This document shows positions 39,001 to 61,500 of a stretch of DNA of 64,000 nucleotides, in pieces (positions within the stretch are counted from its first letter, which is position 1; each line of letters starts with the position of its first letter). The position numbers and the translations under genes are program-made. The DNA is from Bispira polyomma (taxonomy: Eukaryota). The stretch spans positions 21,142,001-21,206,000 of the forward strand of contig OZ287752.1 of NCBI GenBank assembly GCA_965649765.1, in the 5' to 3' direction. Below the pieces are notes generated by a model. That model was not told the DNA's origin. It worked only from the letters and a program-made list of their open reading frames with translations, and ran no database searches.

Positions 39001-41170
39001 CAAAGTGTGTGAAGTACTCCAGGTTTTTCCTTAACAAAATGCTTCAACTTCTGAGAAGAAATCATTCAAAATTTCCTTGATATGTTGAATATTCTGGTTG
39101 CGTTAGGAATCTGGGCTCATCAGTGGAAAAAAAAATCAAATGTGACAACCAAGCTGTGGTTAGTGTTCTGACAAATGGCCTAACCCGTGATCCAGACTTA
39201 GCTCGGTGTTCAAGGAATATTTTCATGGTAGCTAGCCACTATGACATAGAAATAGACATAATCCACATACTAGGTGAACACAATACTACTGCTGATTTGT
39301 TGTCCAGATGGTCAAATTCAAACCAGGAAAATATTCGTTTACATGTACTTGTAGGCTAGGCCTGTGGTGTCCAGTGGGTGAAGATTATCTGTTCCTAAAT
39401 AGTCAAATATAATACAATTGTTACAAAGTACTCTGTAGTCTTTTATCTTTTCCAGACAGAAAACAAGTACAACAGTTACTCTTAAAAAAAGGCAACCAGG
39501 AGATTGTATCTTGCCTTCTGCAGGTCTACTTATCTTACACTGCTATGTACCGAGTCTACCTGGCGTTTGCTGCCTTTATGGATCTGCCTTTATATCATGT
39601 GACTGTGTTTAACCTCTTATCTTTTTTAGAATTTTTGCAGTCAAATAATGTCAAACCAGCACACATGGCTAATTACCTTTCTGCCATTAAGGCTAAATCC
39701 ATATTAAACAGCCTCCAGGTTCATGCTTTCAGTGACCCTCGCATTGCATATTTCCAAAAAGGTGCTCAAAGGGCTGCCCCTCTACATGTTAAATTGAGAA
39801 ACTCATTGATATACCTACATTAACTAATATTGTGTATCTATGTCACACTACGTACATGGGACTGGTATACAAAACCCTGTACTTGCTGAACTATTTCTCA
39901 TTTTTTCACTTGGCTAATCTAGTTCCTCACTCATCTTTACAATTTTCACCCCTTAAACACTTAGCAAGAGCTGATGTAATGCTACACCAAAATAGAGCAG
40001 TTTTGCTCATTAAGTGGTCTAAAACAATGCAGTCCAACATCCAAATTAAACTCATAACCCTCCCACGTCTTGTGGGTTCACCATTTTGCCCTGTCCAGTC
40101 ACTGCAGGACATGTTAGCACTCACCCCTTCTGGGGATAATGTACCTCTATTCCAGTTTAAAGTCAACCACACTTGGGTACCTCTCACAGACTCAAAGGTA
40201 CGCCATCATTTTAAAGGTATTCTTGCTAGATTACAACTCAGTGATTCTGGACTTACTTTCCATGCTTTCCGTCATTCAGATGCCACCTTTGCTTTTAACC
40301 ATAACATAGACATTCAAAACATACAACATCATGGCACCTGGACTTTGGACTGCGTGTGGAGGTATGTCACGGATACTGTTGATGCTGGTCACCAAGTGGC
40401 TGATACTTTTAGGCAACATCTCTCAACAACTCATTTCTACTTTTTGGGTTTGGGTGTTCATAATCATTTCATAAGCTACATGTATCTTTTATAAAGTTTA
40501 TCTTTAACTTCATTTAAATTCAGCGGTTGACGAACTGTATACTAAATAAGTAATTGTCAGTGCCAAGTAACTACTACTGTAATATTTCATGCAGTCTCCC
40601 AAAGGTTAACTATTAAATTTAATTCTCATAAACCGTTGCTATTGTAACTGGTAATTACTTTAATTCAGTGATGGCTGAATTCCAATGTATGTCATTGTAA
40701 TTATCAGTGTAAAATAACTACTGCCTAATTCAAGTATTGCTTTAATTGTTAACTACTACCTTAACTTTCGTATTTTGAGTTAAAATTGTTTAGTTACTGT
40801 TAACTAGTACTTAATTTCGTATTTCGAGTTAACATTGTGTGGTAATAGTACTTGTAATTACATTGTACTTTACTTATTGGTATGTAAGGTCACCTTTCGT
40901 AATAAGTGCCTAAGGGTTTTTTAAGTAACAGAGATAATAAACTTTTGTGTTAAGGTGACCTTACACAAAATTCATTTAAGGCTAAACAATTTATTTAAGG
41001 TGGACTTAAGCCACTTAAAGTTTGCCAAACTTTAGTAATTTGAATTTTTGGTGACCTTAGTCACCTTGTATAAAATGTAGCTTAACATGTAGTCTAACAA
41101 TAAATGTTTTACCAGCATTCTGTGTATACTTACCTGTCTTCTTGACCTTGACCCTCTGGCCTGTTACCGG
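36100..41170 (+). mobile_element. Ngaro/DIRS tyrosine-recombinase retrotransposon, near full length and decayed
   Basis: gag (C..C...HEHPVGKRC, VDWPQ, DRIRRAHAQRH, CCCH knuckle); RT (VIIDLSW, LPFG, INYIDD); RNase H (CDNQAVV, NTTADLLSR); YR (HAFRHSDAT, HGTW..VWRY). Confidence 0.9.
39545..40494 (+). pseudogene. Tyrosine recombinase of the Ngaro/DIRS element (frameshifted)
   Basis: KWSKTMQ, FCPV, FHAFRHS, HGTW and catalytic Tyr motifs; split across ORFs 39545-39823 and 39832-40494. Confidence 0.88.
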
Positions 41171-43070: not shown

Positions 43071-43439
43071 AATGACTTCCATAAACAGCCAGTCTACCAG
43101 CAAGTTCTACACAATTGTTATCACTGGTCAGTATTGTATTTATAAATTTAGAACATCATAACTTCCCCCTAAAGCCAACACTGTTCTTGCTAATAAGGTC
43201 TATAATTCAAAGAAAAATAAATGTATGGGGGGATGGACAGAAGTGTGAACAAAAAAGTTTTTAACATAGTGAATTTTAATGGGATGATAAACTGACTCAG
43301 CAAGCCCCTGACGTGGAATTTGAAATATCAGTAACATTTATTAGTATGTTATGTACAGGGTTATAATGTAATATTTAAAATATCAGTAAAATTTTAAATA
43401 AGCCAAACTCAAATTAGAGTGAAGAAGGGATGATGACAG

Positions 43440-44130
43440 AAAATGCAAGGAATTATGGAGGCAGCCTGTGAGGTGGATTAGGTATGTCAAAATGGCCAAG
43501 TTACGCCATAGTCCGTGTGCCATAATGTTCTTAAGAGATACGTTATTATTGAAGGGCAGTGTAGCTCCAGATCTATGGAAGGTATGAAAACCGTTAATTG
43601 AGTGGTTAACGCTGCAAAATCGTTCTTAATGCTGCACAAATGTGTGAATCCACTATTACATGAATGGGAGGTGCTGATACAAATATGTCTGAAAGGGAGA
43701 AAAGTTGCCTAGACTTTAAGAGTATAGAAACTGCCATTACTGGGCATAGAAGTGCAAGTTTTGTTGCAGGAAGTTGTGATTTGGATTTGTCCTGCATGTT
43801 TTTAGCCCATTTTCTAATTACGTGTACCCCGAGAGGGCTAAATACTAGGTCTTGCCTTATGAGTTCCTTCCGGGGTCAAACATATTTCTTGAATGTGGAG
43901 CTATGTTTGACATACGTAGGAAACCATAAAGGGCTACTGCAAATACAGTTCTTTACTGTGGAGGGTCATTCAATATCTCACAGGCTTGTGATATTCTCAA
44001 CAGCTGTCTGATGTAAAACACCTTATTTTGAAGCTGGCCTAAAAGAGGAATTGTGAATCAAGCGGCAAGTCTAAAGATAAATAGATTTGTCTTGTAACAC
44101 AATGTGGTTGAGATTGTATTTTAAACACAT
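43440..44130 (-). mobile_element. Ngaro/DIRS tyrosine-recombinase fragment
   Basis: IRKWAKNMQ, LLCPV and GFHTFHRSGATLPFNNNVSLKNIMAHGLWRNLAILTY. Confidence 0.85.
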
Positions 44131-45199: not shown

Positions 45200-46990
45200 C
45201 AGTGCATCATCTATGGGGCGTATCAGAGCTGCCAAATGGCAACTGCAGTCATTACTTGGATGTTTACTTTATATCCATGAATGTGTACTCTATGCTAGGT
45301 TGTTTGTGAATAGGATTTTAGATACCCATAGGAATGCTTCTGCTAACACTGTTATACTGGATGAGGATTTCCACAAAGATTTTCAGTGGTTTCACACAGT
45401 TCGTGGTGCATGTTCTTACACAGGGCCACACAAGGGATGACACTCTCATGTTATATGTGAGGTCTATTTGGTGGATACGTGCTTGTAAAGACATAAAACT
45501 CAAGGTGGTTCACCAAAGTTTTTACTTAATAGGTTCCACAATGCTGGCTGCTCAAACAAGCAGAAAAACAATTCCCCTTGCATTTAGACCAGGAATGTGT
45601 ACTTTTCTCAGTTTAACCTTTTCCTGGCTCTAGCCATGTTCTGGAACATTCCAGGTTTTACCACCCTTAGCTACGTTTTAATTTTTATAAAGTTTTTGTC
45701 AACCTCAAGTTTATCTCACCCCACTATTCAGAATTATCTTTCTAGTGTAAAGTCCCACTTTTTATTATTTTGGTTTAAATCATTCTGAGTTCCTGTTAAG
45801 ATAGCTATTAATATGCCTTCAGGGTTAAAGGAATCATCACTATACCCATGATTCAGCAGCTAGTTACCAAATGCCTAACAATTAAGGACAGAGTAGTACA
45901 CAAGGTCCTCTTCCTTGTTTCCTTAGTTGTTTTTTTTCAGGATTTCTAACGTAAAGTTATAAGGATATTACCATTCCCAGATTTCTCACACAGTGTTATA
46001 TTTAATCCTCCCGGTTGTCACATCACCATAAAATTGTCAAAACCTCTGCAAAAATAAATGCATTTTAGATAATTCAACTCCCACGTATACCTAGCTCGGA
46101 CATATGTCCTGTTGTTGCCCTTTAGCAAATGTTTAAATTTTGTCCATCCCTTCCCAATTTCTACAGTTAGCTCTACAGAATTGGGAGAATGGCCCAATTT
46201 TGAGATCAAGGAAAAAATCAATAAATTTAATATTTTGGGCAGTAAAATGAAAATGTGGGGCGACCTTCCAGATTGAACTGATTCCATCTCTTTTCGAATG
46301 GACACCGCTCCTAATCGACCTTAAAGTCGGTACTAAAACTGCCCCGGCCTCTCCGATGTGGTTAGGATCGAACTTATTAGCGATAGAATCTGATGTATCG
46401 CTCTAGAATTGAACGTATTGGAACGTATGTCCCCTGAACTATAAGTTCGAACGGGCCAGTATTACGACAAGCCTGTAGTGAAATAAGACCTATCAGACAT
46501 AACCTAATGACGTGAACTTAATTTAAGTATCACCCTGAAAGTTTTGAGTTTAAGTTTACGTTATGTAAAGGTCATCTTAACTTGAGAGATGCCTTGATTA
46601 AGATGAGGCAACCTTGAACTCATTTTAAGTTTAAGGTAAGGTTGCCTTAAAATGGTATATAAACTGCATTTAGTTTAAGGTCATCTTAGTTTGATAGATG
46701 ACTTAGGTATATAAGTTTTTAATAGGAGTTAAGTTTATTACCTAAAGGTGGCCTTAACCTGAGGTAACATTAAATTTATATGCAATTGTATGTAAAATAG
46801 AATAAAACACACTAAAGCCCAATTAGGAGGCAGGGTTTGAAGGAGGGCTTGGAAAGCCAGAGCAACTTGCCTGGTGATCTCTAGACACATATTTCGACAC
46901 AGTCTGAGGTCCATGTTCCATAGCTCTGAATATCTTGTAATGGAACATGGTTATTTAAGGCCGGAGTTGCTCATTTTCCAAACAAAAATC
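45200..46990 (+). mobile_element. Ngaro/DIRS fragment (RT C-terminus, partial YR, 3' region), abutting the L2 fragment
   Basis: LQSLLGCLLYIHECVLYARLFVNRIL..KDFQWF and TIQNYLSSVK; its 3' aaggtcacctt-like hairpin region resembles that of the 36100 element. Confidence 0.75.
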
Positions 46991-48367
46991 TCTGAGAATT
47001 TTATCGTTATAATTAGTATCTTTTATTTCAGTTTCTGTTAATTCACATCAAGAAGTGATGTATTTAGCTTCAAATATTATTATATCAGCTGCTTTGAATG
47101 ATACCAGATATGGTTTAAGTCCTAAATGTTCACAAATAAGACTTACATTCCTGTTAAATTTCTATAGTCACTTTTATATGAGAGTGAAATAGGGTCAGTG
47201 ATTGCTATAGTTGGTACAAGGAAATGGTACTCAAGGATACGTATAAATGGCTTGTTCAAATATATTTGGAGCGCCATTTAGTTACTTTTACCTCTTACCA
47301 GAATGTGAAATAAATAAAAACATACTATTATTTCAGATACAAATATTCAATATCATGTAAGTATCCCTATACACAGAATATTTCAGTGTCATACTTTCCC
47401 TTGCACTAAGTTGTGGTTGACTATAGGTCTGTTAATAATATCTCTAGCAGTTCACCAAGCGTACAATAAAATATCTGTCATTTGACTTGCAATGTGGCAA
47501 AAAAGGAACTTCTTATTGATACATTCATATTAAACAGCAACATGACATATTTCGCTACAATGCACATAAGCTGTATTTCAATGTATTACAATAAACGATA
47601 TGAAACTAGCATGCAAATTGTTACTGTACTGTGGCATCCTTATTGATATATTACATATTTGACAATAAAAAGGATATAAAAAAAACCTTCAATTAGCATG
47701 TGCAACATTACAAATATATGCTAAAACATATCAAGGACTACTTTTATGAAAGGTGTCACCTCTGGCCCTTGTTTAAGCTTTACCGCATTATTAAATTCTG
47801 TTCTTGCTAAGTTTTGTCTTAAATAATCTCTCAAAACATATCAAGGACCACTTTCAGGAAAGGTCTGAGGTGGTGCGCACATTTATGGTAACTCCGGTAT
47901 AAAGTCTAAATGGTTGTTATGTTGAGTTTACCCTTAAAATAGCTTTCATAAAAAGGCAAATTCGGTAAACCATAGTAAAGATAAACTTAATTTTTTATGT
48001 AGTAAGTAAATTTATAAAACAAAATACAAGCCAGTTAAATAAATAAATATGAATTAAAATTTAAAAATCAAAAGTGAACTCTGTATAGCACTACTTCATC
48101 TTAATTTAGAAGGCTTATACTTATTCCCTTGTTAGAGTAGTCAGTTAAAATATTCGAAATAACATGCCCTTTGCAGTTATATTTATGCAATAAAGCTCGA
48201 CCTGGCTTAGCATTCAGATCCCCTGCCCCCTAAAACCAGAAATCAGACAGTGAATGATATGTATTATATTTTATTAGTTTCACTAGATACTATACATGAC
48301 ACTAAAAAATTAAAACTACATAAATGAAGGTGCCAAAATAATACTCACTGTCAACTTGACAGGTTAA

Positions 48368-49560
48368 ATGGAGAAAGCTCTGGATCCCGCCCTCCTGGTG
48401 GGTCTAACAGAAGAGACAGATAGTCTAGTCTTGATGCAACTCAAGAAGGTGAACTCACGACTGGACATGGTCGAGGGACAAGTCGCAGATGTGCAGGGAA
48501 AACCACAAGTACCAGACGGGACAATACTAAGTTAAGTAGTGCTTCTCAAAAACATTACAGTAAAAGTAAAAGCAAGTCGAAAAGTAAAAACAGTGAAAGT
48601 GATAGTGATGTAGATTGTCAGAAACATTACAGTAAGAGTAAAAGTAGTTACAAAAGTAGAATGATCTCAAATGAAAGTGACACCTCTTCGAATGAATCTG
48701 TGGTACCAAGTATGTCTGTGTTAAGATCCTCTCAAGGCATACAGAGGGAGGTTGACAGCAGGTTACAGGAACTAGAATGTGAAGGGGCATGTCAGGCAGG
48801 TAAATTTCTCACCTCAAAAATTAAATCAAAATGCGGGCAATGTAGATGTGGTTGTTAAACAACGAGTGGCCTGGCCTCAAGAATGTATTTTGGGGGAGAC
48901 CAGCAGACTTGCTTATGACCAGCTGTCACTGACACAGTGGGTTCAGGGCTTCTGTAAAACTATTTTGGAAGAATGTGATAGTAAAACTAAGGACAAAATG
49001 GTAGAGTACATTTCTGAACTTATGGAAGGCGCAACAGACTTTTCCTGACTGGAAGCTAAAGCGGCACACGCGGTTCTGTTGTGCAAGATGGAGAGAGACA
49101 CCTTGACATGGCAAAACACATCTCACATAGATAGAATTCGCAGGGCGTATGCGCAAAAACATCTCGCAGGGTCGGGTAAATCAAATTTGACAAGAAGTAC
49201 TGAAACAACCAGAAAACCTTGGTTTTGCAAAAACTTTCAAAACGGTAGCTGCTCTCACACAAATGATCATGAGACGGGGGGTAAAATGCATAAACACATT
49301 TGCTCAACATGTTTGGACAGGGGAAGGGAATTAAATCACCCAGAAAAAGATATTCGCTAAAAAGAAAATGTTCGCAAAAAACGAGCAAGCTGCTCAAGTC
49401 TAGATCAGGGTGAGGGCAGCAGACAACAAGTAAATGATCAGATGGTTAATACTGATGCATGTGTTGAATAGAATGGTGTGGACTCAAATGAAAATACAAA
49501 AAAATCAAATACACTGGTTGTCCTGTAGTACAGGCTAATTTATTTAGAACAAGAGTCTTC
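48368..49560 (+). pseudogene. Ngaro/DIRS gag fragment inside the inverted-repeat pair
   Basis: VAWPQ, YDQLSLTQWVQGF, DRIRRAYAQKH and CKNFQNGSCSH..HICSTC..H. Confidence 0.85.
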
Positions 49561-49579
49561 TATCGTACATAAACCCTGG

Positions 49580-49730
49580 GCCTCTTCCTACAAACCTAAA
49601 CCTAAAGATAGTAGCATTCAATACCCGATCAAGAACAAGATGCCCTCGGTCATTGATCTGATTACAACCCAAGACCTAGATGTAGCCAACATATCAGAAG
49701 ATTGGCTGAAAGCCCAGTCACACCAACACG
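49580..49730 (+). pseudogene. LINE APE-endonuclease N-terminal fragment
   Basis: LKIVAFNTRS-KNKMPSVIDLITTQDLDVANISEDWL matches the APE motifs N.RS..NK and E.WL. Confidence 0.65.
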
Positions 49731-51829
49731 CGCTATCGTCCCACAACGTAGCAAAGCAATATATCTCAAAACGTGGTAGTTTTCTGTGAAAGTGACGTCA
49801 TTTTGGCAAAGGTGCAGTCGATTGTGATGTTTTGTGTTGTTTTTGTGACAATGTTAGTACTTATACACCCGGAGCGGGAGAAAAAAGCGAAGACTTTACT
49901 GGTAGGAGATCACTACCTACTACTACGAAGATGTACTATACTACTACTTACTGGTTTGTTCTGTTGCCTTCTGCTACTTAGTGAAACATTTTTGACTAAC
50001 AGAGACGAGTGGAGACAATCTGACTACTTACTGGGACTTCCTCGCTACCTACTAATATGTAGAGCTACTTACTGATACGTCTCTGCTACTTTCGGAAATG
50101 TTCCAGGACAAACAGAGAAGTTGGGATAAATGGGAGCTGTGACACAATTGCTTCAAACAGTTTAAAACAATCGTCTCAGCAAACGAAACGGAGACGTTTT
50201 TGGAACGATATCATCCGTTAACCAACGTCAAGGAACGAACGCACCTGGGATCCTCACTTTGGCATTACCTTCTAATACGTTTGTACTAAGTTTCTAAACA
50301 ATTGAAAACGTCACACAAGTATAGGTGTGACCAGGCTTTAACCAATATTATAGTGTTAACCTGACAAGTTGACAGTGAGTATTATTTCGGCACCTTCATT
50401 TATGTAGTTTTAATTTTTTAGTTTCATGTATAGTATGTAGTGAAACTAATAAAATATAATAGATGTCATTCACTGTCTGATCTCTGGCTTTAGGGGGCAG
50501 GGGCTCTGAATGCTAAGCCAGGTCAAGCTTTATTGCATAAATACAACTGCAAAGGGCATGTTATTTCGAATATTTTAACTGACTACTCTAACAAGGGAAT
50601 AAGTATAAGCCTTCTAAATTAAGATGCAGTAGTGTTATACAGAGTTCACTTTTGATTTACTTTAATTTTTTAAAATAATTATGTATTTAACGTTCACATT
50701 TTGTTTCTATAAATTTACTTACTACATATAAAATTAAGTTTATCTTAACTATGTTTTACCGAATTTACCTATTTATGAAAACTATTTTAAGGCTAAACTT
50801 AACATAAAAAACATTTAGACTTTATACCAGAGTTACCATAAATGTGTGCACCACCTGAGACCTTTCCTGAAAATGATCCTTGATATGTTTTGAGAGAGGA
50901 GTATTATTTGTTACTAGGCACTAATATACAGATATATAGAGATATATATATAGATATACACATACAGACATGATACAATTAACAATGATAAGATCAACTT
51001 GGGATGCAAAATATATTAACTAATTTGATACATATTAAGTAATTTTACTAAAACATCTGTGATATGAGATAAGCCAAAATTTGCTAAAATACCCTGATGT
51101 GATAGAGAATTATTACGTAAGAATGCATGATAGGATTCTAAATTGTTCCAGCACAAAGATATATTAATTTAACCCTTTCCTACACAAGACACAACTTTTT
51201 TTTCATTATTTTATTATAGATAGCTGAAAACACATTCCACGTAAAACTACCTCAAATAACATTCTTTTAATGGGATTCTGCAGCACTAACAATTTCCTAT
51301 TGCAAGAAACTGAAAGAACATATAATAATATTTTAGGGGTGTCGACTGATAATTAATGTAAGATACAGATAATGTAATACAGTTTGTCATGCATGATGTT
51401 ATAGTGATGATGACATTATTCTAGGGAAAAACTTTAAGGATCACCTCGATAACCTTACTCTGACTTTTGAAAAGTTCCGAAAATACAACCTGAAACTTAA
51501 ACCCAAAAAGTGCAACTTGTATCATTCTGAGACACTATTATTGGGAAAAGTTGTAAGTCCTGGATCACCGGTTTTACGCATGAGCAGTTACAGGATGCAT
51601 AAATATCTGACCCATGCCTGCAAAAGCTAATAAGTTTTGATCTCTAATGGCCTGGAGCTGAAACAAAAGGACTTATCCCTATGTAGTCCGGATGTACAGT
51701 ACTTTTACAAGAACAAGGCGCATTTAGTGTATAACAATAGACTATAGTATTATCTGTGGAAAGATGAAGTAAGTGATAAACCATTGCTTATGATTCCACT
51801 AGATTGAAAGAAAAGTTTGTGTCACTTAA

Positions 51830-52502
51830 CCACAATCTACCCTTAACTGGTCATATGGGATCATAAAGACTACAGCTCGCATGAGGAAATGGTGTCTGTG
51901 GTACGGAATGACTAGAGATGTGGAGTTATTTGTGAAATTTGTAACATAAACAAAAGGGCCAGTGTAAAACCAAAAGCACCATTGGGACAGTACCATGCTG
52001 ATTCAACTCTAGAACGGGTACGCATTGACATTATTGGACCATTTACCATTTAAGTGACGGGGTAATCAATACGTACCAATGATTACCGGTGATTGTGGAC
52101 CAGTTTACCAAATAGTTGAAATGTTTTCCGCTGCCACATCAAAGTGCTGAATAAGTTTCCAGATGGATACATTTCGAGATTTGGTTGTCCTTTAAAAATT
52201 CATACCAACCAGGGTAGAAACTTTGAAGGAAAGTTATTCGCGTCTGTGTAGAACTGTTACAAGTTGCTAAAATCCGTACAACCCCCAACAGACCATGTTC
52301 AAATGGACAAGTGAAGCGATATAACAGAACTATCCTACAGTTAATGAGATGTTTTTTGAGAAGCAATCAACAAACATGTGATGAGCATCTTCAACAGTTA
52401 GCTGGGTTTATTCGTTCTACAATAAACAGAAATATCGGTTTAACTCATTATCTAATGATGTTAGGTAGGGAAGTCGGTATGATACTGCAGCAAAATATTT
52501 GA
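51830..52502 (+). pseudogene. Gypsy integrase (zinc-binding and rve core), frameshifted
   Basis: HNLPLTGHMG, KPKAPLGQYHA, ERVRIDIIGPF, FGCPLKIHTNQG, TTPNRPCSNGQVKRYNRTILQ and MMLGREV. Confidence 0.88.
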
Positions 52503-54501
52503 TTAAGCTAAAAACATTATAAAACAGGTGCATACATTGGCTAGGGAGACTTTGTTATCGTCACAAATGCGTCAAAGAAGGGGACGTCAGCGTGGGGCTC
52601 CGGCTGCAGAGGTATACAAGACAATTCTGGGGGTAGAGGTTAAAGGAGGGGAGGGTATCGCCCTCGGTACTGTCTATGTAGTAGGGGTTCACATCCAGGT
52701 AGTGTCAACCCCAAGGTAACAGGTTGAGGGCGAGGGTATCAACCCAATCCAAGTAGGCTGCGGGAAGGTCACAACGTTCCCCAGGTACGCCATGCAAGTG
52801 TGTGTCTCCGTCATCAGGAAGATGAGAGAGCACCTAGGCAAGGACAGGTGAGACGGCATGCTGGTTCAAACTTTCAGTCAGGGCAGGAACCACAGCATGG
52901 GGAAAGGTCCTCTAACACTAGGTATGGTAGTAGGGGTCGTTCCGGGGACCAACTGGTCCCGATGGAACAAGAAAACCAGAATCCAAGACAAAAAAACCCT
53001 GTTGTGGTATCAACAACATTGCCACAGTCGACAGTCGAATATGAGGCAGTAATAAGCATGATAACCCAAATATTTAGCCTGGTAAGACCAGAAATAATTA
53101 GAACCAGGGTATTCCATCCTTCAAACCGGGTGGTACCATTTAACCAGGCACTGCTGATGGAACAATGTTTGAGGAATATCAGGGTTCAGATGGGCAATCA
53201 AGCAGCCCAGCCTTCATCTGCTTTGGGAACACCAACACTAGAGTACAGGAAACTCCCTAGAACGTTGGCTACCTACAATAGATGAGTGCAACCAGCACCA
53301 GGGAATACCTCAGGAGCTAGTGTGCAAACCCAAGCGGAGGGCAAAAGCAAGATGTCGCCAGGCTATGTCTATAGGGCAGCACAAGAGGATTTCGAGTCTA
53401 AAGCTGCAAAAAGGAAGTGCTGTGCCCAGCAGGGAGCATTCTATCAAGGAAAGAAGGTATTCCCTACACCAAAGCCGCAGGATAAGAGACAATAGTAAAT
53501 GCAGGCTGAGGGAAAGTGTCAAGGAAAAGGAACTTAAACCTAAACCGGAGCCAAGCAAGCCTAAGAAGTCTAAACCAGAAACTGGAAAAGATGTGGGGAA
53601 GGAGGTGAGACCAAGCGGCGAGCCGGATGTTGTCAAAACCTGAGTTCAGCCTGCCAAGAGAAAAGGTTTTACCTACAAGGAAACTGCTGAGCGAATAAAA
53701 AATTTTATTAAAAAAAAAAGACCCGCCTGCTTTATGAAGGGCTGTGGAACACCGCACATGAGGAAAAGGTGCACATGAGGAAACACATCACACGGAGGTA
53801 CCTACCTGAAGTGAGGGACATGACAAATGACAAAAAGATAACCATTTCATGATAACCATGCAGAATCTTTTGGGATGTGGAAACTATGAGACACTGCTTC
53901 AAAAAGTTAAAACACAGAAGTTGTTTTTGGATCCCAGTCAAATGCACCTTCAAACATCAGAGGACGACTACCGCCTGATGGATCATTTCCAATTATAGCT
54001 GTCAGGAAGTCATTTGAAGAGCACACACGAAGCCAGCCCACCAAAATTGTATAGCCTCGCTAGTGCATTGAAGGGTTGCAGCCTGCATAATAAACCACAT
54101 AGGGGAAGACAAGGTATAAGACTCCGAAAACTCCAAATATTGAGGTCCGTATTGGAGACATATCAGGTGCGGCAGCTGCAACAGAAGATCCTTTGAAGGT
54201 AACTGTTGGGAAGAAAGTGGTGGAGCCAACGTCTCTAAGTAGAGGGAAGGTGGGATTGACTAGCAAGACAAAATCCATCCTGTTCAAAGTACTAAAACAG
54301 TCTGTAGCAGAGGCTATAAAGCAAACACGGCAAGCAGAGGAAGGACAAAGTGTGTAAGCTGAGACTAAGTCTGAGCTCATAGATACTGATACACTAGTCA
54401 GTGAGTTAGATGTGCTGTTGGGTCTGACTGGCAGGGAAGCAGCTGCAGAAGCAAGCTCTACAGTAACCCAAATGGAGGTGACGGAAGAACCTGAGGTTGA
54501 G

Positions 54502-54706
54502 CCCAGTGACAGTGAACCTGTTGGAACGTCCAAGTACAAGCAAGGTAAACCTCGCCTTACAACGAACGAGGCGTCGGAACGTTATAAGGCTGGAGATTTT
54601 ACCCAGCGACAGTGAACCTGCTGGCGCTTCTAAGTACAAGCAAGGTAAACCATGCCTTACAACGAATGAGGCATCGGAACGTTATAAGGCTGGAGATTTT
54701 ACCCAG
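54502..54706 (+). repeat. 100-bp tandem duplication in the Gypsy extra ORF
   Basis: Units start at 54502 and 54602 (cccag.gacagtgaacctg), with a residual cccag at 54702. Confidence 0.9.
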
Positions 54707-54910
54707 TTTCAGTTCTCCCAGGTTATCCTCAGGGAGGAGAAGGAGACAATGTGGGAAGAAGCAAAGTCGTCTTATACAGAGGTATTGCAGAAGCCTCCAG
54801 CAGTAAATTTAGAGCCGCCACCTCCGGTGAAGTATGTTGGGAAGTCTTGCTCAGAGTTCAGTTGGGAGCTCAGGAGGTAAAATTTGGGAACCTGTCCGGA
54901 GTCACGAAAA

Positions 54911-55480
54911 CGACCATTTGTTGACTCCCATATGCACGTGGACAAGCTCAAGGAAGTCATACGCATAATCAGATTGGATGACTTACTACGGGTGGGTCCT
55001 TTGCCTGAAGTGCATTAAATTAGGGTGTTGGGCGAATTTTATGTCGAAAAACAATTTTGGTCCAAGGTGGTAGCAATCCCTTGTCGAGATTTCAATAACT
55101 TGCAGGACACCAGTGACTTGTGTCTAGCGGTGATCATGGACATAATGAAGGAGAAGCACCAAAAGTATTAAAGTGCATAGACATTGTTATAACGCGGGAA
55201 TAAAGGAAATGAAGAAATTGTAGGAAAATTTTCCTGGGGGTACTGTTTGGATTTACAGGGTAACTACCGGGTGCATCATGACACCCCGAAGTAGATCAGG
55301 TAGAACGGGAACTGCCCTTGAAAAAGATACTCCTGGAAACAGATTCCCCGTATCTTCAAGTCCCAGAACATTATGGCTATTCCTACAACACTTTCTATGA
55401 GATGGAGGTAATAGCAAGAAGGGTAGCAGAGTTAAAGCAAACTAAGGTTTGGTGTTTAGTACAAACCCCAACCGCATAGC
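54911..55480 (+). pseudogene. TatD-family metal-dependent DNase domain at the C-terminus of the Gypsy extra ORF
   Basis: Motifs in the expected order: FVDSHMHVD, VLGE, VAIPCRD (IHxRD), VHRHCY, FGFTG, LPLKKILLETDSPYL, IARRVAELK. Stops, frameshifts and an apparent internal deletion are present. Confidence 0.85.
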
Positions 55481-56835
55481 CTCAAAGAGGTATAAAAAGT
55501 CAAGGACAGCAGTGGATCGTGGGAGGTGAACTCAGTAAATCAAACAAGATAGAGCAACAGTTTGTGGAAGGAATCAATCTCAACCTTTGCTGTTGTATAT
55601 CCTCAGTCAAGGCGTATTTACAACCACCACAGTCTACATAATTAGTAGGTTGTGACTATAACCAAGAGGTTGTAGCCAGTTCTGCCCTGTGTGAATCATA
55701 CTAGCAGCAGAGCTGGATCAGTGAACCACGAGGTATACAAAAGAAGAACAAAATTTCACTTCTATGAAACACTAATATCATATTATAAAGTACTTTATGC
55801 CGTGGTCACACTGAGTACGTTCGCATTACGTTTTCTGACTGATTATTTCATTAAATCCATTGACTTCAATTTGAGATGTGAATTTCAGTTAAATCCAAGG
55901 TCTGTGATTGAAGTTAAATTCTGTTGGACTTAGGTTGAGCGATGTTGTCAACCAAATTTTAAAAATATTTCCACATCAATATCAAGTTGTGTGACCATGG
56001 AGAAGGTAATTATTACACCACAATATCTATCTGACTTTACATTAACATCCCAATATTCTTAAATGTGAAGTTTGAACATGTAATGATGTGAGAATATGTA
56101 AGTGCAACACTTATGTTTGTGGTCCAAATATGTGTATATTTATGTTGTGCATTCTCCCCTTTGATATGCCTCTTTCAATCGTGAGACTCATACTGTTATT
56201 CAATCATTGCCAAAAATGATTTTGATGGTGCTACCATGCAGGGTTAAGACATAACGCTTGTTATTCACTTAATGGTCAAGTTAGGCTAATGAACACAAAA
56301 TTTACTTACTTTTACTTCAAGTGGACAAGTCTTGATAATACTTAATCTTCATTACCCACAAAGGTAAGACTTCAAGGGTGACAATTGAGATTTGATGTCA
56401 CACACGTATATAGCTTAAAAGGATTGTATGTTAAACATCAGAAATAAGTATTAATAATGATATCAAAATGACGTGTCAAGAAAGATTAAAATGTCTGAAA
56501 CATCAATGACATTCATGATCACACAGTAACATCAATATAATATAGTAAGCCAAACATCAGAAGTAGTCACAAGATGTCTCAAGAAATAACCAACATGTCT
56601 GGTTACATCAATCTAACCTCTGATGTCATAATGATATCAATGTAGGGTGGGGAGCAAAACATCACATATTGTATTATTAAATGATGTCAAAATTAGGTCA
56701 CATGTAATTACCAAAAGATTTCTTTTCATGAAATAATGTCTAGATATCAAAATGATGTCAATATAACATCAGGTCCCAGTTTAGATCAATTCTTCATATC
56801 GAAATGACGTTTTTGCCTCCTGGGGAGGGGGGCAG

Positions 56836-57192
56836 TATAGAACACCAGGGCAGAATAAGGGCGTCAGCGGTCTGTAAAGCCCTTAAGGTTGTGCTTGTTT
56901 TCTCTTCTTTGGTGATTTTACTACTTTGGTCACTGGCAAAGTACAACCTTGATAATGGTAATGTTCCGTGTATAATTTAACAGTATGTACTAGACTGAGA
57001 TGACCTGGATTTGATTCTCAGTGATGTAACTTTACTATATATATATATACATCATAGCTCAGTGACAGAGCACTCCGTCTAGTACATAAAACACTCAGCT
57101 AGTTGATTGAGATACAAAAACATTCGATCAAAGAATAAATATGCTGTTTTTCATGTGATGTCTCTGATTTTATGTTGCACGTTATGGTTATA
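56836..57192 (+). repeat. Putative 3' LTR of the Gypsy element
   Basis: Follows the polypurine tract ggggagggggg; contains a TATA run (~57037-57048) and AATAAA (~57134); termini are tata..tata, possibly decayed TG..CA. No 5' partner is in the window. Confidence 0.6.
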
Positions 57193-57489
57193 GTCTTAAT
57201 ATGACATATCTGGAAATATTTTGAAGAGGCCAGATTTGACCTTTGACCCTTCAATTAAGGCTGTTATATGTTGCTTATTGTGGGTCTTAGAGGTTTGGGT
57301 TGTGAAACCAAAATTTGACCTTTGACCCTTCTTCGACTTCACAGGGCTGTATCCACACGAGGACCCTTATATTTAGCTTATTATTGGTCATATAAGCTCG
57401 TCATGTGACACCAACTTATAGGAAATCATGGGCTAGTAATATTTTTATTGTCAGATTTGACATTAGGAATGTATATATATATGTATAGT

Positions 57490-58560
57490 AATATGTTCCC
57501 ACTATTTATGTGATCTATATATGCTTGAATCAATCGTGTTTTTCCAAGTGCCTAATGGGACAATGTATGAAAATATATTATAAATAAATTAATTATTAAT
57601 TATCTTCATATAAACATCACTATGTTGCAGTTTTCTCAGAAATATATTGTATATTAGCAACATTATTCTATTAGTTGTTTTCAATGTACAACTTACTATA
57701 TGGGAACATTATGTTCCCACTATTTCTGTGATCTATTTATGCTTGAATTATTCGTATTTTTCCAAATGCCAAATGGGGCAATGTATTTTGGCAATGTAAT
57801 CTCAGAACTTACAAGGATTTCAGCTCTTAAATTTGGCATACAAATTGGATCTGTTTCAAAGACGAACCATGTGTATTTTGGTGTTAATACAGCCAGAAAT
57901 AAGGGAGAAACAGACATCTTTATGTTTTGAGGATCGTCAGATTTGATTGGATGGTCCATCAACGAAAGACCAAAGGGGAAAACCTTAAATAGAAGCAAGT
58001 ACACATATCCTTTGTTTATTATTAAATTTTAATGAAAAACGAGAGCTGTGAGCGATAAGGGAAGTTATCGTAGACCATTTTTTTTTGTCCCAGGCAATGC
58101 TTTCATTTTTACTGATGGTTCTCACTATTAGTTTTCAGTATGTTGCAGTTTTCTCAGAAATATATTGTTTATTGGTGACATTATTCTAGCAGTTGTTTGC
58201 AATCTACAACTTACTACATGGGGACATTATGTTCCCACTATGCCAGTGCTCTATTGATGCTTTAATTAATCGTGTTTTTTCAAATTGCGAAGAGGGTCAA
58301 TATGTCAACAGAAATTAATCTAAATAAACTGACTATAACTAATTATTTTTACACAAACATCAATATGTTGTATTTTTCTCAGGAATATTTTTTGTTTGCA
58401 GCCAACATGATTTTAATTTGTTTTAATGTACAACTTACTAAATGGGGACATTGTGTTCCAACTATACCAGTGATCTATTTATGCTTTGAATTAATTGTGT
58501 TTTCCCAAAATCTTAAAAGGGACAATGTCTCAACAAACATGAATCTAAAGAAACTGTGAG
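57490..58560 (+). repeat. Four diverged copies of a ~210-bp satellite-like unit, interrupted
   Basis: Core tgttccca.cta...gtgatctat..atgcttgaat..at.gt.ttttt at about 57494, 57712, 58230 and 58454. Confidence 0.75.
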
Positions 58561-61500
58561 CTAACTATTACTTATTATTTTCTCATAAACATGTATCGTG
58601 TGTACATGTACAAATGCCCTTTTTATCATAAAAATACCCTTGTTTCACAAAGGAAATATTAAAATGTCCTTTTGTCCATAAGTAGGTCAGAATAAAGTAA
58701 CTCTAATTGTAAATCACCAGTATAGAATGTGTGTATAGTTTCTCTATTAAGAAGTAAGTAAAAAGAAGGGTATGAATAGAATATTAAATCTGTGGGGCAA
58801 ACACCTATAGAAGGCAATTATACTATAACTAGAAAACTGTGGTCAATAAAATACAACATAGACGTGAAAACAGTACTTAATAAAAAGACCACATGTATGA
58901 ACTACAAAGCTTTTATTGCAGAGTTCTCACTGACAGTTAAAAATGCTGAATAGAATTGTTTCAAAAATATGTTGCAGATACTTGTAAAAGCTTCATAACA
59001 ATAGATTGCAGCTGTGGCATTAGAAAGAGAGGAATGTATATTACAACTATCACAGTGCTCAGCAAAAAAAAAAAATATATAAAATGTTCATATAACAAAT
59101 ACTACTAGTTATAATAGATACATAGAGGAAGTTCAATTTGGCACTGAATAACATGATCCAACACACACATGTGTGTCTTTGAGCAAAATAACAAAAACGT
59201 TTAACATGGAAGTTTTTTTTCTTCAAAATAACACTGGAAGGTTTATAAATCTTAAAGGGACTGTAATTACATTTATCTAATTACATACACTAAGTGGAAT
59301 ATGTCTTAAGATTAAAAAACATTTTGAACCTTATTAAATAATTATTTGAAAGTGCTTGACCTAAAATTCAATTTTACAAAAATGTCGCCATAATTGTCAA
59401 ACACTTGTTGTATTTAAAATTAGGTACATAAAATACAAAAAGATGATGATAATAAAATAACAAGTATTAACTGAATGTGACTGGAGTACATGTAATACTG
59501 GAAGACTGTATTATGAATTGATATATTCCCAATATAAAATGTAACCATAAATGTTTTAATATAGGAACCTGTATCATTTAAATACCCTTAAAATAAACAC
59601 ATTTGATGGAATCTCAATTATATTACACACTCATATATTTTCTCTTTTAACTGGGAAGAATTAAAAACAAATTTTAACAAAATAATCTATTTAAAATTAA
59701 AAAAAACAAAAAACAAGATTTTTGGACTTGGATGTAAAGGCTATGATATATATACATGTATATATACACTGGTTATTGGTCTTATACAAGTAGGATAGAG
59801 GATACACATACAGATTGTCAGATGACTGTCTTATTAACCTATTATAGAACTATGGTAACCGTAACATTTAAAAAATTTATTTAATTTTGGCCACAAATGA
59901 ATACTTATTATCATCGGTCAAATCAGGTCAGCATAATAAGCTCTGTGTTTTTTGTTCTAAATAATGACCATATAAATGATCAATGATGGTGACATACACC
60001 AATTTCTGAGAGACTGGCCCACTCTTGGCTGACAATCGGTATGTGTATCATAGGTTTAAATTAGAATCAATCAAAGTTTTTTTTTTCTTTAGGATTCACG
60101 TCTACCCATGTATCTACCTCCTAAAAACTCAGGGTCTTAAATCTATTTTTTCCCCCGATGAAGATTCATATAAAAATAATCTCATTTATGTGGTCAAATC
60201 ACAGATATTGATATAGAAATAATTAGTCAACCATCTCAGAATCTATGAGACAAGCTTGTCACGTCAGAATACACATAAAGCAAATAAGTAAAAAAAAGCC
60301 TAATTTAAACTAAATTACACTAGTGTGCAGTCTATAACACAATCTCTGTGTCCTATAACCACTGTGTTGGGTTTATTAGTACTTGAATATCTTAATGGAC
60401 AAAATTTATGACAGAATCTGTTCCTTAGGAACAAATGCGTAGTAATGTGGTGTTCACACTATGATGGTATGGATAGGTGGTAACAGATGTGTCAAATATC
60501 ACCTTGTAGTGAGAGAAACCATATCTATAGCTTTCCTTTACTTTAGCTTTCTACCTCAACCTTCCACCGAATTACTACTGTTGCTGTTCTGTCCCAGTAA
60601 TCATGTGTTTCCACCTGTTTCGGACTATTTAAGAGTATTTCCAGTGCGTACTGTTAGCGTTCCATGCCGGTAATTGTCTTTTTCTGTCCGTTAAACTTAT
60701 CTGAGCAAGTTTCAGGGGGGTGAATTTTCCCCAGATGGAAGAGCCGATATAACAAGTTAAAAAGCCTTTGGTACCGTCTGCAATACCGCCAATATGTGAA
60801 CAGGGCATAAGAGACTTAGAAGTTGATGTTTGACTTCTTACATTTGTGCTTAAATTGCGCCAAAGCAGTACAGCTGAAGAAACTTAACACACCTATGGTA
60901 CAAATAAAAATTAGATGCACAAAAGTACTGATTAAACAAAAGTTTTGCGTATGTTAAGGTGGACAGTACATAAATATATGGAAGACTCTCAGAATATATT
61001 AAATGCTATCAAAATAATGTAACAGTCTATGTAAAAGTCTACAATTAAAACAAATGTACAACAGTTTAATTGTTAATAAAATATGTTTAAATTAAAAAAA
61101 ATTGCAAATAAAATGTGTAAATAAAAACTAACCAAAAATGTGTAACCCAGCCATGTTGTGAGATATTGGCTAATTGAGACAAATACACAATATATTTAAG
61201 AAACAAATGCTTCTTTATGAGTCTCTGATATGTTTTATATGAAACTATCAACTAACACAATTATGACATGTATGGTCAGTAGAAATAAAAACAATTACTG
61301 CATATTGTATAAATCCAATATAAAAATAACAATTTCTCACTATAATTCATATTTAAAAAAAAAAATAAAATATTCTTTCAGTAATCAAATCTCATATATC
61401 ACAGTGCCTCAAAGGACCAAAATACAATATTCAGTGATGTATTAACTGCCCATCAGGAAATTATCCCATCAAGTGTTTTCCATCAGGAAAACTGCCCATC

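Follow-up and report, generated by a model that had tools for sequence, protein, structure and literature searches.

Long terminal repeat (LTR) retrotransposons that carry an enzyme gene in addition to gag and pol are already known as a kind. The Juno and Vesta elements of bdelloid rotifers encode a DEDDy 3'-5' exonuclease as a third open reading frame (ORF3) (PMC5408684; here and below, PMC papers are cited for the portions of their text that were available), and Gypsy elements of orchids carry an ORF for an AlkB m6A demethylase, a gene described as recent and whose activity was shown (PMC9289625). Fixed extra enzyme genes of this sort are rare in LTR retrotransposons and point to what limits the elements in their hosts.

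Here we describe a Ty3/Gypsy family of Bispira polyomma in which ORF3 ends in a TatD nuclease domain. A decayed copy lies in a 64,000-nucleotide stretch of contig OZ287752.1 (assembly GCA_965649765.1, positions 21,142,001 to 21,206,000 of the forward strand; “the window”), for which an earlier note, made from the letters alone, had proposed a Gypsy lineage with TatD as a stable accessory gene after integrase. That proposal stood: TatD lies within paired LTRs in many subfamilies and has diverged together with pol. We can state the family layout with near certainty as LTR, tRNA-Leu primer-binding site (PBS), gag, pol, ORF3, polypurine tract (PPT) and LTR, flanked by 4-bp target duplications, with TatD as the clade-defining gene.

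The TatD-bearing Gypsy clade

To find other copies, we searched the genome from which the window was taken (1.04 Gb, 75 contigs). The DNA search returned about ten sister copies at 78-85% identity. Three close sisters are bounded by 330-bp LTR pairs (92.7-97.0% identical) with TG..TA ends and an ATAT target duplication, and contain both PBS and PPT. In sequence, the PBS complements the 3' end of tRNA-Leu(TAA) genes of this genome (13 matches; control, 0). In one sister, ORF3 is open over 754 aa and ends in a complete TatD domain (PF01026, E 1.9e-38). The order of pol is protease, reverse transcriptase (RT), then RNase H, then integrase, and the best PDB match of the RT is Ty3 RT (E 6e-76); together these assign the family to Ty3/Gypsy (Metaviridae).

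An LTR pair, PBS and purine tract were located in 25 of 50 loci. Exact 4-bp target duplications were found by script in 12 of these 25 and by eye in 6 more, where the script had misplaced the LTR start. Identities between paired LTRs ranged from 80.8 to 98.6%.

The association of TatD with pol was strict. PF01026 had at least 151 matches in the genome (150 of 296 candidates scored). We examined 40 of the top-ranked loci with 20 kb around each, setting aside one duplicate and two loci that were already covered or overlapped the earlier set; on the same strand, in the 9 kb upstream, pol was present in 37/40 and gag or pol in 40/40, while pol on the opposite strand occurred in 0/40. Among 20 lower-ranked loci, hand-picked down the list, pol was found within 8 kb in 11, gag or pol in 17, and neither in 3.

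Starting from integrase gave a matching picture. A listed TatD lay downstream of 51/68 integrase matches with 60% or greater identity, 15/24 at 48-59% and 3/58 below 48%. When 20 of the 26 close integrases without a listed TatD were examined, 12 proved to have TatD, four had the front of ORF3 only and four had no ORF3 piece. TatD was found in none of 20 distant integrases (of 55, outgroup Gypsy) that were examined, and in an integrase tree (FastTree, midpoint root) the TatD-bearing clade stood apart from these 20 with support of 99.

The earlier note had suggested looking for TatD between integrase and paired LTRs in many copies and species. In this genome the arrangement recurred in many copies; beyond it we have one unrelated metagenome contig with integrase followed by TatD. 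This contig, the only one of 80 JGI metagenome loci with element domains (79/80 had none), encodes protease, RT, RNase H and integrase and then a TatD 30% identical to the query, and its integrase falls in the TatD clade. A search of IMG/VR returned no relative.

Ten subfamilies carry TatD, and their TatDs are 24-100% identical. The same subfamilies were recovered in each gene tree, TatD and pol alike, including the comparison of RT and TatD trees that the note had called for. TatD distances tracked those of RT, RNase H, integrase and gag (Mantel rho 0.82-0.90; 0/999 permutations). Kinship alone yields such a signal, which therefore indicates that TatD was inherited together with pol.

Nine catalytic or motif positions in HxH, GVHP, GE, HCR, HC and ETD were kept in 35-42 of 42 rows (80% or greater coverage). 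Across the seven subfamilies compared, synonymous sites were saturated in 402/426 pairs (pS 0.80, pN 0.38), and dN/dS was about 0.18 between subfamilies. The presence of TatD across subfamilies, its co-divergence with pol and the retention of its motifs at saturated dS identify it as a clade-defining gene and no host pseudogene.

One could suppose that TatD is a passenger, whether as the processed pseudogene of a host TATDN or as a capture that happened once and does nothing for the element. The copy in the window is dead, and within subfamilies the dN/dS of TatD is about 0.46, as in decaying copies; RT and integrase, however, show the same within-subfamily ratio (0.44-0.63), and a passenger does not account for ten subfamilies with co-diverging TatDs inside paired LTRs whose motifs persist at saturated dS. 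We regard this explanation as practically negligible. Its specific form, a single processed pseudogene of TATDN1/2/3, was one of the outcomes that the note had named as fatal to its proposal, and it is ruled out by the many insertions, the co-divergence with pol, the kept motifs and the integrase clade.

Three observations weigh against the overall explanation given here. TatD evolves 2-3 times faster than pol (pN 0.38 versus 0.12-0.17), no sampled LTR pair is identical (the best is 98.6%), and eight of the 20 in-clade integrases examined lacked TatD, four of them without any ORF3 piece and four with the front only. The last may reflect decay or real losses.

Several further features of the clade were observed. 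Its Gag is about 970 aa long and begins with a helix-hairpin-helix (Pfam HHH/HHH_3, E 3e-5 to 9e-3, below cut-offs; L065:6267-9170, L047:7776-8885, L045:9716-10000, L031:6357-7310), a start that is to our knowledge unusual for a Gypsy Gag. Many LTR-bounded deletion derivatives keep ORF3 and lose gag and/or pol (L023/24, L033/34, L087/88, L051/52, L083/84). In L023/24 and L033/34 the 18-base PBS is followed immediately by the start of the deletion, a position compatible with aberrant second-strand transfer. At L041, L095, L105, L234, L237, L238 and L243, gag without pol lies upstream of TatD. A tandem array of tRNA-Ser(TGA), tRNA-Leu(TAA) and tRNA-Ala genes occupies G000:C3:12.38-12.42 Mb (L227, L228).

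Sister Gypsy clades without TatD have other third ORFs after integrase, of 250-400 aa, which start with C2H2-like fingers followed by low-complexity sequence (L271, L273, L277, L280, L282, L287, L288, L289); none had a Pfam match over cut-off. Homology between these fingers and the zinc finger of the TatD-bearing ORF3 was not supported (best 2.6 bits versus up to 10.3 in shuffles).

The window copy

The copy in the window is a 5'-truncated, internally deleted fossil Ty3/Gypsy element that cannot encode an active enzyme. Its recognisable parts are as follows.

51400..51562, + strand: C-terminal remnant of RT (Ty3/Gypsy); Pfam RVT_1, E 5e-6; 85% to sister RT
51561..52582, + strand: pol remnant, with the end of the RT-integrase linker and the zinc-binding and core domains of integrase; two blocks with 82% DNA identity to sister L033/34; tblastn with sister integrase
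52578..55439 (about), + strand: ORF3 remnant with frameshifts and stops; 77-84% DNA identity to sister ORF3
53073..53252, + strand: short conserved block near the N-terminus of ORF3, following the RG-rich start; 80% identical to sister (E 2e-30)
53701..54113, + strand: C2H2-like zinc-finger and helical domain of ORF3, unannotated and broken here; by tblastn and alignment, no Pfam match
54493..54692, + strand: tandem duplication of 100 bp that breaks the frame within the acidic linker; repeat units 86% identical
54914..55449, + strand: TatD (TATDN2-type) domain remnant; profile match and sister alignment
55439..55728, + strand: 3' LTR remnant, its start and the PPT deleted; 67-79% identity to paired LTRs of sisters and to further LTR copies

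Upstream of 51400 the 5' LTR, gag, protease and most of RT are missing, and gag and protease had zero matches in the window. About 810 bp with RNase H are deleted at 51562. A deletion of about 670 bp at 52582 removed the end of integrase together with the splice-acceptor motif and ATG of ORF3, both of which are retained in a segmental duplicate of the locus (L021/22). Within the TatD remnant, 82 codons (sister ORF residues 509-590, with ANFC, GVHP and the catalytic GEIG) are deleted after 55012, one metal-binding His is lost, and there are two frameshifts; HxH is present, as is ETD at 55336-55344. The C-terminal helices are deleted, and a deletion of about 530 bp joins TatD to the LTR remnant, so that the end of TatD, the 3' UTR and the PPT are gone. 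Unlike in the sisters, the set of metal-binding and catalytic residues is incomplete.

Much of what the earlier note had read from this remnant was borne out. Its six motifs lie in order on the + strand in three frames (DSHMH 54923, LGE 55028, IPCRD 55076, HRHCY 55176, FGFTG 55246, ILLETDSPYL 55327), the ETD residues were placed correctly (E at 55336, D at 55342), and DSHMH shares the frame of ORF 54482-54880 across one stop. TatD identity holds by profile: 55168-55482, with X at stops, matches PF01026 (E 4.1e-9, 36.6 bits, cut-off 27), while four other single-frame pieces of the TatD region in the window gave zero TatD matches in the Pfam scan. The RT and integrase remnants at 51400-52569 place the nuclease ORF downstream of integrase on the same strand, as described, and the ORF3 remnant is collinear with intronless sister ORFs, in agreement with a decayed ORF that had appeared to lack introns.

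Two of its readings need correction. “LGE” aligns to a non-catalytic helix and is a chance look-alike, the true GEIG being in the deleted codons. The PPT and 3' LTR had been placed at 56.8 kb; the LTR remnant sits at 55439-55728, and the G-rich tract at 56.8 kb matches no element copy compared. Among the 40 of 492 candidates scored, the interval 55835-57260 matched only the segmental duplicate, and it matched no element copy compared.

That duplicate spans window positions 46968-60748 and G000:C5:21.037-21.056 Mb, about 146 kb apart, at 86-97% identity. L021/22, the closest copy, shares both the element and its flanks with the window and is no independent insertion. L061 and L083 likewise have flanks in common.

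Next to the truncated pol, on its upstream side, window positions 47827-50897 hold an element whose decayed ORFs, one feature of which is a CCCH-like motif, are enclosed by long inverted arms (303 and 198 bases, 91-96%); it resembles a DIRS/Ngaro-type or foldback remnant. Decayed tyrosine-recombinase-like ORFs with HAFRH and HTFHR motifs at 39793-40494 and 43383-43875 are presumably remnants of DIRS-type retroelements.

ORF3, its likely relation to TATDN2 and its predicted role

ORF3 is about 850-1050 aa long in core subfamilies and shorter in others. From its RG-rich start it runs through a conserved short block, a C2H2-like finger together with a helical domain, and an acidic linker to TatD. 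Membership of the TatD family rests on PF01026 scores over cut-off, a TIM-barrel model and the HxH/E/H/H/E-x-D residues in the sisters; a sister domain was predicted as a TatD barrel with pLDDT 93 and matched E. coli TatD in Foldseek (E 5e-16). The Pfam scan of ORF3 returned TatD only and no env domain, and three ORFs examined had no transmembrane segment (maximum Kyte-Doolittle 19-mer 1.16-1.23).

The finger/helical domain had no Pfam match. Its best model, that of the sister domain, reached pLDDT 85.8 (50-82 in others), and a fold search with the model gave no Foldseek match at E 0.001 and a best VIA-align Z of 3.2, which does not imply that the fold is novel. ORF3 supplies a conserved domain, predicted to fold well, without a family or fold match. 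The same domain occurs in 88 of 187 database proteins with a full TatD domain; named sources of the combination are Dreissena, Mya, Ptychodera, Diadema (XP_072166577) and Lingula (XP_013398409), all known as proteins only, and Ruditapes has a TatD-only piece of similar sequence.

Other database entries touch on the same domain. One element-type protein (P0331) and one TATDN2-type protein (P0308) have a NADAR domain fused before TatD. Four element-type TatD proteins (P0182, P0184, P0301, P0338) are labelled “Sedimenticola sp.” and come from short contigs of metagenome-assembled genomes; they probably represent DNA of the animal host that was binned with its symbiont. The giant squid Hox cluster is listed with a “putative deoxyribonuclease TATDN2” beside transposon-derived genes (PMC6962438), and this may be an element of the present kind. 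Where invertebrate annotations list an intronless “TatD/TATDN2-like” gene, it can be cargo of an element; this genome has more than 150 matches.

ORF3 has the start of a gene that could be read from its own message. Subfamilies win, A, B, C, D and F have a pyrimidine tract and YAG directly before the ATG of the RG-rich ORF3, with differing tract sequences; in G and H an acceptor-like site lies a short way upstream of an ATG. In win, A, B, C, E, F and G a donor-like GT(A/G/T)AG lies 17-26 bases upstream of the LTR end, and it is weak in H. These motifs make it rather probable that a U5 donor is spliced to the acceptor before the ORF3 ATG, which would give a message that, like that of env, lacks gag, pol and the primer site. 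Weighing against this, the acceptor motif also arises by chance (29/736 ATGs on the forward versus 7/436 on the reverse strand). Two sequencing runs of unrecorded kind, in which contigs span subfamily B end to end, are uninformative on expression.

The nearest relatives of the element TatDs appear to be TATDN2-type proteins. In a tree of 206 rows (15 near-duplicates dropped) the two group apart from bacterial TatD with support of 0.999, and in a second tree of 48 rows the same grouping has SH-aLRT 95. Like cellular TATDN2, the element protein carries TatD at the C-terminus after a long disordered N-terminus and keeps HxH, GE, HCR, HC and ETD. Unlike it, ORF3 is element-borne, intronless, present in more than 150 copies and only about 25-33% identical; it also has the zinc-finger/helical domain, which almost all of the sampled TATDN2-type proteins lack.

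Three points count against TATDN2 ancestry. The trees contain TATDN2-type and bacterial TatD proteins without TATDN1 or TATDN3, so that ancestry is judged against bacterial TatD only, and a single entry (P0069) is named TATDN2-like by its source. The phmmer scores of the sister domain do not separate the groups (up to 99 bits for TATDN2-type, up to 109 for bacterial-size proteins). The element TatDs are weakly supported as a single group (0.80 and 63), and one or two proteins of the zinc-finger type (P0296, P0315) are placed among TATDN2.

A separate search of G000 with P0064 for the host TATDN2 gene gave 117 matches of 39% identity or less, and in none of them could host exons be recognised.

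The human TATDN2 protein degrades R-loop RNA, for which it requires Glu and ETD residues (PMC10711561); these residues are kept in the element TatDs. It is reported to be an RNase with little DNase activity that cuts hairpin RNA and not plain RNA-DNA hybrids (PMC10711561), and fish tatdn2 acts in germ cells (PMC12709183). By homology, we predict at about even chance that ORF3 is a TATDN2-related protein, made from a spliced message, that acts as an RNA nuclease and clears R-loops or structured element RNA. At even chance or slightly below it, the RG-rich start and the finger/helical domain would bind RNA or chromatin, and TatD would act on germ-cell RNA by 3'-5' trimming and by nicking of structured RNA. 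The outcome would be that element transcription is sustained and R-loop damage or silencing limited.

A DNA nuclease is the reading behind the functions that the earlier note had suggested. As a 3'-5' exonuclease or AP endonuclease, ORF3 would trim cDNA ends, aid the repair of integration gaps or remove stray cDNA before it is sensed. The TatD fold with a full metal site is consistent with this, as are the DNA exonuclease and AP activities of bacterial TatD and TATDN1/3 (PMC10711561) and the helix-hairpin-helix, a DNA-binding type, at the start of Gag (below curated cut-offs). However, in the trees the domain joins the TATDN2-type proteins, and the human one among these shows little DNase activity; the RG-rich start suggests RNA binding; and a separate message would bring no automatic packaging with Gag-Pol. 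No test here supports cDNA trimming, gap repair or TREX1-like clearing, and we consider a DNA nuclease unlikely, though a serious candidate. Going by homology, with identity near 30%, we favor over DNase roles one directed at RNA, exerted in germ cells at those loci where the element itself is transcribed.

Another possibility is that ORF3 is a counter-silencing RNase, which would degrade the RNAs that the host aims at the element, be they small RNAs, precursors of these or antisense transcripts. Cleavage of hairpin RNA by TATDN2 (PMC10711561) and the faster evolution of the ORF3 TatD would suit such a role, and a silencing role was floated for the rotifer DEDDy ORF3 (PMC5408684). We find it distinctly doubtful, as the between-subfamily dN/dS is low and human TATDN2 favors R-loops over simple hybrids.

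It could also be speculated that ORF3 acts in the particle during reverse transcription, where it would assist RNase H by trimming RNA flaps or the primer, be it tRNA or PPT. This draws on the 3' RNA exonuclease activity of the TatD family and the strict linkage to pol. The RNase H of the clade, though, keeps its catalytic residues in 20-21/21 rows, as RT and integrase keep theirs, which rules out TatD as a substitute for a dead RNase H. Human TATDN2 does not cleave plain RNA-DNA hybrids (PMC10711561), and sister clades replicate without TatD. We hold an in-particle role to be very improbable.

We return to the R-loop nuclease. In its widest form, which we put forward tentatively and think less likely than not, this would be an ancient animal Gypsy clade (molluscs, brachiopods, echinoderms and hemichordates) that took up TATDN2, a germline R-loop nuclease, once, fused it to a zinc-binding domain without a known fold, expresses it from a spliced message and removes R-loops at its own loci, and it would be the hidden source of many invertebrate “TatD-like” genes. 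If true, this would be a retrotransposon that handles host R-loop surveillance with an enzyme of its own. That a Gypsy clade has kept a TATDN2-type gene throughout its history opens to test the question of whether retrotransposons in germ cells are restricted by R-loops or by structured RNA.

Comparison with described elements

The TatD gene of these Gypsy elements is real and clade-defining, and it is apparently unreported. We found no report of TatD in an LTR element in the literature searched, although Repbase/Dfam notes, supplements and most subscription journals may hold a mention. The main text of a survey of env-carrying elements (PMC13524379) has 0 occurrences of “nuclease” or “DNase”, and “nuclease” is absent from the main text of a mollusc survey (PMC6238403).

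Like the env-carrying errantiviruses of the Ty3/gypsy group, TatD-clade elements have a third ORF after integrase, a tRNA-Leu primer site, which is among those that errantiviruses use, and a predicted spliced subgenomic message (PMC13524379). Unlike them, their ORF3 has neither a transmembrane segment nor an env domain. The orchid AlkB elements are similar in that a Gypsy lineage captured a nucleic-acid enzyme from the host and has it as a fixed additional ORF; the enzyme is a different one, the TatD gene is old, and its activity is predicted.

The closest parallel is with Juno and Vesta. In both cases a 3'-5' nuclease with intact catalytic residues is the third ORF after pol, in the env position, and in both its activity is predicted. 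ORF3s are described there as typically spliced messages; for the present elements a spliced message is predicted from motifs. The fold differs, as a TatD TIM barrel stands here in place of the DEDDy/RNase D fold, and the word “TatD” is absent from the available text of PMC5408684. In contrast to the rotifer elements, the nuclease is preceded here in one fusion protein by an RG-rich start and an unannotated zinc-finger/helical domain, and its presence marks one deep clade.

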